A stretch of 26,936 nucleotides of DNA from a virus (Duplodnaviria > Heunggongvirae > Uroviricota > Caudoviricetes), in the IMG/VR virus record IMGVR_UViG_2660238215_000003; one strand, written 5' to 3'. Positions 24,402-26,936 of the stretch are shown here, piece by piece (position 1 is the first letter of the stretch; each line of letters begins with the position of its first letter). The notes below the pieces were generated by a model. That model was not told where the DNA came from, ran no database searches, and saw nothing but the letters and a program-made list of their open reading frames with translations. The position numbers and the translations under genes were made by a program.

Positions 24402-25078
24402 GCAAATACACCGAACTGATCACGAACTACCACGCCACCAAACCTAAATTTCTTGCACATGTTGATCTGATGACCCGGCCGCTTATTGATGTTGCGGCTG
24501 CCACCAGAGGGCTGATTACTGCATTTGATATTGACTCTGCGGTTGGTGTGCAACTTGACATTCTTGGATTGTGGATCGGACGTAGCCGTGTTGTCAGCCA
24601 GCCTATCTCAGGTGTCTATTTCAGCTGGGATACCGACGGGCTTGGATATGATCAGGGTGTATGGCAGGGGCCATACGATCCTGATTCCGGATACATGTAC
24701 CTCAGCGATGAAACTTATCGTGTCATCCTTAAAGCGAAGATTGCGATTAATAACTGGGACGGACGGAATGATTCGCTTCCAGCAATTCTTGACGCGGCGA
24801 CAGCAGGATCCGGACTGCGAATGCAGATAGTCGATAACCAGGACATGACGATATCGGTCTGGCTCTTTCCTGATACTGATATTTCAGATGTATCGCGTGA
24901 GTTAATTGCTGCAATTAAACAGGGATATCTCACAGTAAAAGCCGCCGGGGTTTGGGCGGGTGGCATTGAAACACCTTCGGTGGAAACTCCATCGGAAGGT
25001 TCAAAATTTTTTGGTTTTGATATGGATAACGAATTCATCAGTGGTTTTGATGTAGGGGCATGGGGAGTATTACTCTGA
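24398..25078 (+). CDS. Tail protein I-like (DUF2313/YmfQ-like)
   Basis: 226 aa, 4-nt overlap with the J-like gene; directly precedes the tail fibre gene. Confidence 0.6.
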   Translation: MSKYTELITNYHATKPKFLAHVDLMTRPLIDVAAATRGLITAFDIDSAVGVQLDILGLWIGRSRVVSQPISGVYFSWDTDGLGYDQGVWQGPYDPDSGYMYLSDETYRVILKAKIAINNWDGRNDSLPAILDAATAGSGLRMQIVDNQDMTISVWLFPDTDISDVSRELIAAIKQGYLTVKAAGVWAGGIETPSVETPSEGSKFFGFDMDNEFISGFDVGAWGVLL

Positions 25079-26139
25079 TGGCGAAAAATGACTTTAAAGC
25101 GTTTGCAACTGATCGGAATGCCAATGTTATGTCGCAGGAGGAATGGGAAGCGTTGCCTGCGCTTTTATCCGGATTTACAGCAGGGAAAGCATCCAGTGCG
25201 CAAGTCAATAAGGTTATTCGGCAGGCCAGCTTTATTGCTGCAGCTCTGGCCCAGTTTGTAAGTGACAAAACGCAACGGGATGTGCTTGATAATGGTGATA
25301 TGCCCGGTTTTGTTGAATTGCTGGGATCGGGGTTTGCTGTTGAATACCTGAGCCGCAAGAATCCGTTTGGCGATATCAAATCGGATGGCACGGTGAAAAC
25401 GGCTCTCGAAAACCTTGGTTTATCAGACGTTTTACATAAGGGAAATTTTGGTGTCGGGAGTAGGCTGCAAGGTAGTGCAGCCGGGAATAGCCATGTCGGT
25501 GGATTCATGTATGAACCATATCAGGCGAACAATCTTTACCCGCTAAGTGTGGCTTTAATGCAGGCAGCAGGCCCGACATCGACAGAATGGGCGCAGCTGG
25601 CTGTTTCATATGGTGGGGCATTCAGAGCTTTCCTTGGGCGACAGACTTATAATGGAAATCCTGAAATCAGTGAGTTGTACCATGACCAGCGTAAGCCGTC
25701 TGCGTCGGATGTTGGTGCCCAACCTCTGAATGCAACTCTCACCACTCTTAGTGGAAAAGATGCGGCAGGATTAAGGAGCGTCCTAGGGCTTGGAACAACA
25801 GCCACAAGAAACGTAGGTACGGGAGCGTCACAAATACCTGATATGAGTTCGTTTTTAAGCGGATCTACAGCATCAGCTTTTTGGTACAAACTTCCTGGTG
25901 GCATGGTGGTGATGGGGGGTAATGCATCTGGAATCGCCTCTGGAACTGCAGGTAATGAGGTCTTCTTCCCAATACCATTCCCAAATGCTTGCTCAAGCGT
26001 TGTCGTGACATTAGTCAGCAACGGGTTATATGCCGACACAGTCTCGTTTAATACATATATCCCTGGAACTGACCGTTTTAACGTTTATACGAATACAAGC
26101 GGCACGTACGCTATTTATTACCTGGCGTTTGGGAGTTGA
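25078..26139 (+). CDS. Tail fibre protein
   Basis: ATG overlapping the upstream TGA (TGATG); Gly/Ser/Thr-rich C-terminal half; followed by a tail fibre assembly gene. Confidence 0.7.
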   Translation: MAKNDFKAFATDRNANVMSQEEWEALPALLSGFTAGKASSAQVNKVIRQASFIAAALAQFVSDKTQRDVLDNGDMPGFVELLGSGFAVEYLSRKNPFGDIKSDGTVKTALENLGLSDVLHKGNFGVGSRLQGSAAGNSHVGGFMYEPYQANNLYPLSVALMQAAGPTSTEWAQLAVSYGGAFRAFLGRQTYNGNPEISELYHDQRKPSASDVGAQPLNATLTTLSGKDAAGLRSVLGLGTTATRNVGTGASQIPDMSSFLSGSTASAFWYKLPGGMVVMGGNASGIASGTAGNEVFFPIPFPNACSSVVVTLVSNGLYADTVSFNTYIPGTDRFNVYTNTSGTYAIYYLAFGS

Positions 26140-26140
26140 T

Positions 26141-26557
26141 ATGAACAATTACGTATGGTCAGCATTACATGTTTCATTTTTCCCTAAGGCGATGTTGCAA
26201 GATTATGAATCTGCCGGGCGGGATCTATCTGATATCATTGAAATTGATGATATGGTTTTTCAGACATTTACATCAGCGCCACCTGAAGGTAAACAACTAG
26301 GTGTCGTTAATGGAATGCCTTCTTGGGTAGACAGGTTAGCTCCACCTAATTCTGAACTGAGAAAATCAGCGCTTTCTTCACTTAGCAGCGAATATCAGGA
26401 TGATATTGAGAAACTAAACAGGGTGTGGTTAGCTGCAGCCGTTAATGGTGGTGTTAATGAGACAGCAAAAAAGGACTCCGTCCTAGCACAGATCAATGCA
26501 AGAAAATTGCAGTATGCAAATGACAGGGCTGCGATTATTGCTCAATATCCTGTTTAA
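26141..26557 (+). CDS. Tail fibre assembly protein (Tfa-like chaperone)
   Basis: ATG at 26141 with GGGAG SD, 1 nt after the fibre stop; begins MNNYVWS; AT-rich like exchangeable fibre/tfa modules. The ORF track start at 26030 is an upstream extension. Confidence 0.7.
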   Translation: MNNYVWSALHVSFFPKAMLQDYESAGRDLSDIIEIDDMVFQTFTSAPPEGKQLGVVNGMPSWVDRLAPPNSELRKSALSSLSSEYQDDIEKLNRVWLAAAVNGGVNETAKKDSVLAQINARKLQYANDRAAIIAQYPV

Positions 26558-26568
26558 TGGAGAAAATC

Positions 26569-26730
26569 ATGGCAGATTCTAATGCGTCACCAGAAAACGA
26601 AAACCAGGCGTCAAATCCAGCCTCCGAGATAAGATTTTGCCCCATATGTGGAACGCAAATGTATCAGGGAGAGCGCTACGGCTTCCAATGCTGGATTTGC
26701 CCAGAGTGTGATTTTGATGAGCCAGTGTGA
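26569..26730 (+). CDS. Possible small zinc-ribbon protein (53 aa, CPIC...CWICPEC)
   Basis: ATG with GGAG SD 6 nt upstream; CxxC...CxxC spacing; followed by a strong terminator. Preferred over the antisense 68-aa ORF in the track. Confidence 0.4.
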   Translation: MADSNASPENENQASNPASEIRFCPICGTQMYQGERYGFQCWICPECDFDEPV

Positions 26731-26784
26731 TTATAAATCTGATATGGCATGCTAAATCATGCTGGGTGTTATCTTTCCATCCCA

Positions 26785-26813
26785 AAAGAAAGGGGCTTTT
26801 AGCCCCTTTCTTT
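26785..26813. terminator. Bidirectional intrinsic terminator between convergent genes
   Basis: Perfect 12-bp stem AAAGAAAGGGGC / GCCCCTTTCTTT with loop TTTTA, A-rich upstream and T-rich downstream. Confidence 0.7.
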
Positions 26814-26934
26814 ATAATTTAACTTTCCTGCCAAGATTAATGAATGGCCTTTCTATCAATGCGTAACATAAAGATGAAATCACACAAACCATTCCAAAGC
26901 TGCCAATTAAATAAATAACCCTAAAGTCTTCTGG
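26812..26934 (-). CDS. 3' end of a convergent minus-strand membrane protein gene (possible acyltransferase-3-like C-terminus), partial
   Basis: Only one minus-strand frame is open to the window edge; C-terminal translation ...VIYLIGSFGMVCVISSLCYALIERPFINLGRKVKL ends in the terminator. The S-x-x-Y-x-x-I-E-x-P-F pattern resembles, from memory, the C-terminus of membrane O-acyltransferases. Only 40 codons visible. Confidence 0.35.
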   Translation of the reverse strand, partial: PEDFRVIYLIGSFGMVCVISSLCYALIERPFINLGRKVKL

Positions 26935-26936
26935 CT

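Follow-up and report, generated by a model that had tools for sequence, protein, structure and literature searches.

The 3' end of an Oac/OacB-type acyltransferase gene at the edge of an Escherichia coli prophage sequence, most probably a pseudogene in its lineage

The last 125 bases of the DNA stretch analysed here (26,936 nt from a member of the Caudoviricetes, hereafter referred to as the window) are, judging from sequence comparison, the 3' end of a prophage-carried gene for an AT3-only membrane acyltransferase of the Oac/OacB type. The reading that we favour, with a probability of roughly three in four, is a joint one: the fragment is the 3' end of an AT3 moron of this type, the intact enzyme would probably acylate the O-antigen, and the gene is most probably a pseudogene in the lineage of the window. 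The fragment would thus most likely represent an untranslated pseudogene remnant and not an active conversion gene. The features at the right end of the window to which the evidence refers are the following.

25060–26139, plus strand: tail fibre, 359 aa, with a gp53-like C-terminal domain (Pfam Gp53-like_C, 44 bits)
26141–26557, plus strand: ORF in the Tfa position, 138 aa, whose matches elsewhere are annotated 'tail assembly chaperone'
26557–26730, plus strand: Zn-ribbon ORF, 57 aa (Pfam Zn_ribbon_TFIIB, 25.5 bits), annotated as zf-TFIIB in several genomes
26785–26813, no strand assigned: palindromic intrinsic-terminator hairpin, 13-bp perfect stem and 3-nt loop (folding and plus-strand scan)
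26812–26936, minus strand: 3' end of the AT3 acyltransferase gene (translation; 100% DNA identity to E. coli genes annotated 'acyltransferase family protein')
26824–26919, minus strand: predicted last transmembrane helix, TMH10 of the AT3 core, residues 341–372 (AlphaFold2 model of the homologue P0001; hydropathy)
26842–26877, minus strand: conserved C-terminal motif SSLCYALIERPF (S355–F366), containing the invariant Glu363

Translation of the three minus-strand frames from the edge of the window left a single one open, exactly as a preliminary description of this DNA had stated, both for the coordinates and for the C-terminus that it quoted. This frame runs for 40 codons (26934–26815), encodes PEDFRVIYLIGSFGMVCVISSLCYALIERPFINLGRKVKL and ends at a stop codon at 26814–26812, the remaining two frames meeting stops after 9 and 4 codons. 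The open run is weak evidence by itself, since 40 open codons at the edge were reached in 1746 of 20000 shuffles (8.7%) of the 33% GC fragment. Moreover, a Pfam search with the 40-aa fragment alone returned no match, because the Pfam Acyl_transf_3 model stops at about residue 359. These two observations would favour a chance ORF in AT-rich intergenic DNA past the terminator, a reading that we credit with hardly any probability. Against it, an HMM built only from homologues no more than 43% identical recognised the 40-aa peptide with 30.0 bits (E 7.8e-9) at the correct C-terminal positions of the profile (350–382 of 392), the runner-up among 761 six-frame segments of the window reaching E 0.82, and genes annotated as AT3 have 3' ends identical to this DNA. 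By this comparison the edge peptide is clearly homologous to AT3 proteins; the chance-ORF reading was rejected on the HMM result together with the locus alignment over the deletion site and the 18-sequence family alignment, both described below.

For the final 1.5 kb of the window, megablast found no match among 50,697 phage records, and the same segment matched 19 of 5,426 complete E. coli genomes, 12 of them over its full length. The frame extends into a gene of 375 aa in strains NT1F10 (L003) and X14-3 (L004), and RefSeq lists its product as 'acyltransferase family protein' (WP_062896641.1). Window codons 26815–26934 correspond to residues 336–375 of this intact protein, and the last 2 nt of the window belong to codon 335. 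The assignment to the acyltransferase-3 family, originally made from the C-terminus, was borne out when the Acyl_transf_3 profile (PF01757) was run on full-length relatives of identical DNA: the intact 375-aa protein reached 102.4 bits (cut-off 31) over residues 37–354 and profile positions 2–322 of 326. PHROG 3333 'O-acetyltransferase' was matched as well (E 1.2e-46). A search of 5.8 billion proteins returned PF01757 proteins only, the nearest of which are from Enterobacter (90% and 81% identity, both 375 aa), and the best phage relative, by tblastn against the 50,697 phage records, is Sf101 OacB (30% identity, 91% coverage, E 1e-30). With the full-length protein, no family model was retrieved from NCBIfam and no match by phmmer from the PDB sequences, and Foldseek against BFVD gave a single unnamed and uninformative match (E 4.7e-4). 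Protein, phage-record and literature searches found no experimental data on the 375-aa protein or on relatives above 30% identity.

Conservation was evaluated on an alignment of 18 sequences (the protein, 15 homologues, Sf101 OacB and Sf6 Oac) and on a second one of 71 homologues. Arg44 and His55, forming the R-X10-H motif of TMH1, are invariant in both; they are located outside the window and were seen in the full-length relatives. The same holds for the invariance of Phe86 and Phe87, within FFMITAF, the counterpart of the FFXISG motif. Invariant is also R113-L-F-R116, the RXXR motif after TMH3, which aligns with R116/R119 of OacB and with R73/R76 of Sf6 Oac. Among the AT3 motifs previously described, an R/K-X10-H motif in TMH1 is a feature of the family and RXXR after TMH3 is essential in Oac, OafA and OafB (PMC7448272, PMC9833829). 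In OacB, mutation of R47, H58, W71, F98, R116, R119 or S146 abolishes activity (PMC8952252), and all seven of these activity-critical residues (7/7) are conserved here, as R44, H55, W68, F94, R113, R116 and S142.

Glu363 (codon 26851–26853) is the only feature of the AT3 family that falls inside the window. The S-x-x-Y-x-x-I-E-x-P-F signature, which the preliminary description had pointed out for the C-terminus, proved to be real, this Glu being invariant in the 18- as well as in the 71-sequence alignment, OacB and Sf6 Oac included. The equivalent residue has been reported as important in OafB and OatA (PMC9833829), and the OafA E325A mutant has 4.8% of activity left (PMC7448272). Hydropathy peaks at residues 339–363, and the AlphaFold2 model of P0001 (90% identical; pLDDT 94.3, pTM 0.92) places a helix at 341–372. 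Altogether the model contains 11 long helices, ten of the core plus one N-terminal, in agreement with the ten-helix TmAT fold.

The stem of the hairpin at 26785–26813 overlaps the stop codon of the acyltransferase gene and separates the latter from the convergent tail-fibre operon. The hairpin folds with a dG of −19.7 kcal/mol (z −3.15), and 0 of 200 shuffles folded equally well. As regards its earlier designation as a bidirectional terminator, the structure is well supported by these values, whereas termination in both directions is plausible, because the arms are symmetric in A-tract/T-tract, and the terminator pattern scan marked the hairpin on the plus strand only. The last plus-strand gene of the operon before the terminator is the Zn-ribbon ORF, which accompanies the Tfa and acyltransferase module both in E. 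coli and in Enterobacter (L023). Just past this ORF, about 20 nt before the main hairpin, a second and weaker terminator-like hairpin lies on the plus strand (26745–26764). A Pfam search of the 138-aa ORF in the Tfa position (26141–26557) gave no match. The 359-aa tail-fibre ORF is uninterrupted in the window; for the identical sequence of L001, PGAP annotates a partial pseudogene and a separate 210-aa gp53-like CDS, which is probably an annotation difference due to a mosaic junction at about 25400–25500.

The window covers a prophage late region, with a NinI-like phosphatase, Q, an HNH endonuclease, lysozyme, Rz and TerS, and in its relatives the annotation includes TerL, baseplate J/gp47 and further baseplate genes. 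Past the acyltransferase gene, the relatives carry an S24/UmuD-like gene (a remnant of it in L003, L008 and L009), followed by intS, tRNA-Arg, yfdC and mlaA in L003, L004, L008 and L009 or, in the alternative arrangement of L001 and L010, by dacD and sbmC. The layout of L003, L008 and L009 is tail fibre (+), terminator, AT3 (−), IntS (−) and tRNA-Arg. An opposite orientation right after the tail fibre and tfa genes had been proposed as typical of conversion cargo, and this view is sustained by the same order being found in Sf6 and Sf101. The acyltransferase gene has a GC content of 33–35%, against 46–59% in its flanks, and a promoter-like site (TAGACT-18-TATAAT) is present upstream of it; because of the low GC, the promoter-like site of its own and the 3' hairpin, the gene looks like a self-contained moron. 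As for the homologues, P0001 occupies the same int-yfdC-mlaA site in Enterobacter, P0004 (53% identity) adjoins a second AT3 gene and a gtrA/gtrB/gtrC-like operon, and P0008 (42%) lies in a P22-like prophage, where its gene converges on an ORF of 734 aa.

The tip of the tail fibre, Tfa, the Zn-ribbon ORF and the acyltransferase gene behave as a mosaic module, equivalent to about 25400–26936 and beyond (L001–L004, L008–L010). It is joined to at least three prophage backbones, of gp47/gp53-type baseplate, of GpV/GP46/StfP type and of an IS1-truncated HK97-like type, and it has two chromosomal locations, one at argW-intS and the other beside dacD-sbmC. At the opposite end of the window, positions 1–72 match, in reverse orientation and with 100% identity, the terminal part of an IS3-family transposase element located elsewhere in strain OkiPb01713 (L001 15263–15334), and this left end inside an IS may be a contig boundary. 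For positions 73–2351 the best match among complete E. coli genomes was only 98.8%. Between the Q antiterminator and the lysis genes, an ORF of 170 aa (1679–2191) encodes an endonuclease with HNH_3 and AP2 domains, in a slot that holds tRNA genes in the matching genomes.

Alignment of the loci beyond the window revealed a 1-nt deletion (T) located 19 nt past the edge, changing CGTATG to CGATG. Just beyond 26936 the deletion allele reads CTCGATGCATCC, and the intact allele reads CTCGTATGCATCC. The deletion shifts the frame at codon 329, Thr329 being replaced by Arg-Val-Ile-stop, thus leading to a product of 331 aa that is devoid of the loop after TMH9, of TMH10 and of Glu363. In the deletion allele the 40 codons of the window are out of frame with the enzyme: the main ORF ends 7–9 nt past the edge in another frame, and the frame of the window extends 23 codons further upstream, up to an in-frame stop 71–73 nt past the edge. 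Closure of the frame shortly beyond the window, which the preliminary description had named as an argument against its own proposal, is therefore what is found in the lineage of the window.

Among the complete genomes, that of strain OkiPb01713 (L001) alone matches the end of the window exactly (0 mismatches over 9,537 nt), and its gene is annotated by PGAP with 331 aa, ending at window-equivalent 26943. When 16 loci were compared with the window, the deletion was found in L001, L009, L010, L011 and L013, all 100% identical to its last 6 kb, in L016, identical over 2.3 kb, in L015 (one mismatch) and in L006, L008 and L014 (99.46% identical). Intact-frame loci all differ from the window, L002–L004 at 26219 and L012 at 26823, the latter being its one difference in the last 879 nt; L005 and L007, two intact loci from IMG/VR, are only about 95.5% identical. 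The exact Tfa protein of the window retrieves 25 contigs belonging to its haplotype, with the frameshift allele at 8 of the 9 places shown. Contigs recorded with the 331-aa product number 132, compared with 221 for the intact 375-aa product, and the frameshift allele carries no extra mutations downstream of the deletion. A sequencing artefact was considered and rejected, as the deletion does not lie in a homopolymer and is present in complete genomes, in IMG/VR and on the 132 contigs. The frameshift is a real and common allele.

As the deletion site falls 19 nt outside the window, there is no direct reading of the allele that the window itself carries; from haplotype identity, we consider it very likely that the copy of the window is frameshifted too. 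Of the proposed acyltransferase-type lysogenic-conversion gene, the family and the cargo slot are thus retained, whereas the full-enzyme reading frame is not intact in the loci identical to the window, where the product has 331 aa, nor, most probably, in the window itself.

Further observations concern the integrity of the gene and of the contigs that contain it. In strain MS 119-7 (L002 10193–12291) the 5' end of the acyltransferase gene is truncated by an IS21-family element (ISEc62 istA/istB); together with the 1-nt deletion, the gene has therefore been disrupted in at least two independent ways. The draft contigs L011–L016 end inside the 33% GC acyltransferase gene at differing positions (window-equivalent 27013–28907), and no foreign sequence was found at their breaks, which suggests a coverage drop-out and not an insertion. 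A similar drop-out may explain where the window stops. That the window ends at an IS inserted in the gene was also considered and received no support, the draft contigs breaking without foreign sequence.

The main alternative for the window is that it carries the 375-aa allele in intact form, coding for an active O-acetyltransferase of surface glycans. The 221 contigs with the intact protein, the intact frame of L012 with its single differing base and the fact that the window stops short of the diagnostic site would all be compatible with it. On the other side, the six loci with zero mismatches carry the deletion without exception (6/6), the five intact-frame loci compared base by base have at least one difference each, the two intact IMG/VR loci reach only about 95.5% identity and the exact Tfa protein is accompanied by the frameshift at nearly all places shown; an intact copy is therefore considered unlikely. 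Much less probable still is a frameshifted allele that works, either because the 331-aa protein would be active without TMH10 or because the split pieces would reassemble by means of a TTG-initiated ORF of 50 codons. Such an ORF does span the C-terminal piece in L001 (TTG start, MDASSNIINEPEDF...), and both the frequency of the allele and the unmutated sequence downstream of the deletion could be taken in its favour. However, direct reading showed no Shine-Dalgarno-like sequence before the TTG, the invariant Glu after TMH10 is functionally important, as the residual activity of the OafA mutant indicates (PMC7448272), and no split AT3 enzyme was found in the AT3 literature consulted for comparison. 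The absence of TMH10 and Glu363 leads us to infer that the 331-aa form has lost its function. A different question is whether the allele reflects neutral decay. Its presence on at least 132 contigs, in differing SNP backgrounds and at two chromosomal sites, could follow from a selected loss of glycan acetylation, e.g. as an escape from antibody or from a phage needing an acetylated receptor, or the 331-aa protein might have an altered activity; we regard these possibilities as quite improbable.

Independently of the allele, the acceptor of the intact enzyme is most probably the O-antigen, by analogy with the relatives that have been characterised. Another acceptor, such as ECA, capsule, LPS core or periplasmic glucans, seems rather unlikely to us, and with it the conclusion that the gene would fall outside serotype conversion as strictly defined. 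This alternative draws on the diversity of substrates among AT3-only enzymes, with WecH acting on ECA and OpgC on periplasmic glucans (PMC9558356), on the identity to OacB of just 30% and on the lack of an NCBIfam equivalog. It is opposed by the prophage slot between tail fibre and integrase, which is that of the Sf6 oac gene, by the nearest characterised relative being the O-antigen enzyme OacB, by the gtrABC-like O-antigen glucosylation operon adjoining the 53% identical homologue and by WecH and OpgC being, according to the same review, chromosomal housekeeping genes.

In the explanation that we propose, and which for the enzyme is drawn from its family (PMC9833829, PMC7448272, PMC9558356), the intact 375-aa protein would use cytoplasmic acyl-CoA as the donor of an acyl group, probably acetyl. 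This group would pass a pore lined by Arg44/His55 of R-X10-H and Arg113/Arg116 of RXXR, with Glu363 predicted at the cytoplasmic end of the last helix, and would end up on a glycan of the periplasm or the surface, most probably the O-antigen. The acylated O-antigen could alter the serotype and block the adsorption of phages using that glycan, as with Sf6 Oac. The gene would apparently be expressed in the lysogen from its own predicted promoter and would end at the hairpin that it has in common with the convergent tail-fibre operon. In the lineage of the window, the single-base deletion would have shifted the frame at codon 329, with a 331-aa product lacking TMH10 and Glu363, so that the 40 codons of the window would no longer be translated as part of the enzyme and would persist as a pseudogene remnant.

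The 375-aa protein, still uncharacterised, shares no more than 30% identity with any enzyme studied so far. It is nevertheless an ordinary representative of a well-described class, in a genomic slot that is also well described; RefSeq already annotates it at the family level. An intact allele with activity would represent a further prophage-borne determinant of surface-antigen variation in E. coli and Enterobacter, with a bearing on serotyping, vaccine epitopes and phage host range. Prophage modification of surface antigens is an established theme (Sf6 Oac, Sf101 OacB, PhiV10, BTP1 OafB), and a new member adds little conceptually. A family call that is right from a tail of 40 residues can still concern a dead gene, the decisive base here lying 19 nt outside the window.

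Among the known systems, the closest is Sf101 OacB, which performs 3/4-O-acetylation of rhamnose III and 6-O-acetylation of GlcNAc in Shigella flexneri. Both OacB and the 375-aa protein are AT3-only membrane proteins of about 375–390 aa, 30% identical over 91%, with 11 predicted helices each (PMC8952252 for OacB). The oacB gene is likewise prophage cargo, convergent with a tail gene and close to the integrase, being placed between the tailspike gene and the integrase gene. The identity of 30% is too low for the acceptor sugar to be transferred from one to the other, and the systems differ in their hosts (E. coli and Enterobacter here, Shigella flexneri for OacB) and in the carrier, a contractile-tail prophage with a gp53-like fibre here and a P22-like podovirus with a tailspike in the case of Sf101. 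Unlike OacB, the gene is frameshifted in the lineage of the window.

Sf6 Oac (OacA) has an identical gene order, with tailspike (+), an annotated terminator, oac (−) and IntS (−), and has in common with the 375-aa protein the R-X10-H and RXXR motifs and the C-terminal L-(I/V)-E. It is about 20% identical, was missed by tblastn at E 1e-5, and is shorter (333 aa), without the extra N-terminal helix of the 375-aa protein. According to a review, acetylation by Sf6 Oac confers immunity to Sf6 superinfection (PMC9558356). As for the insertion sites, argW or thrW is used by the serotype-converting phages of Shigella, and sbcB by Sf101 (PMC4159516). The literature, searched for a prophage-borne acetyltransferase at argW of E. 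coli, yielded only other systems (e.g. Kapi1, oac1b).

The AT3 motifs are also common to OafA and OafB of Salmonella, whose Glu after TMH10 (OafA E325, OafB E334; PMC7448272, PMC9833829) corresponds to the Glu encoded in the window. These two are AT3-SGNH fusions, in which an 11th helix and a periplasmic SGNH domain follow; the 375-aa protein ends 12 residues after Glu363 and is for this reason classed as AT3-only. With regard to the chromosomal site, L003, L004, L008 and L009 have the position and the integrase name (intS, tRNA-Arg, yfdC, mlaA) of what we take to be CPS-53/KpLE1 at argW of E. coli K-12, where intS is presumably accompanied by yfdGHI, a gtr-like O-antigen modification cargo next to the integrase. 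The cargo differs, being an acetyltransferase here and a glucosylation operon there, and in L001 and L010 the module instead adjoins dacD-sbmC.
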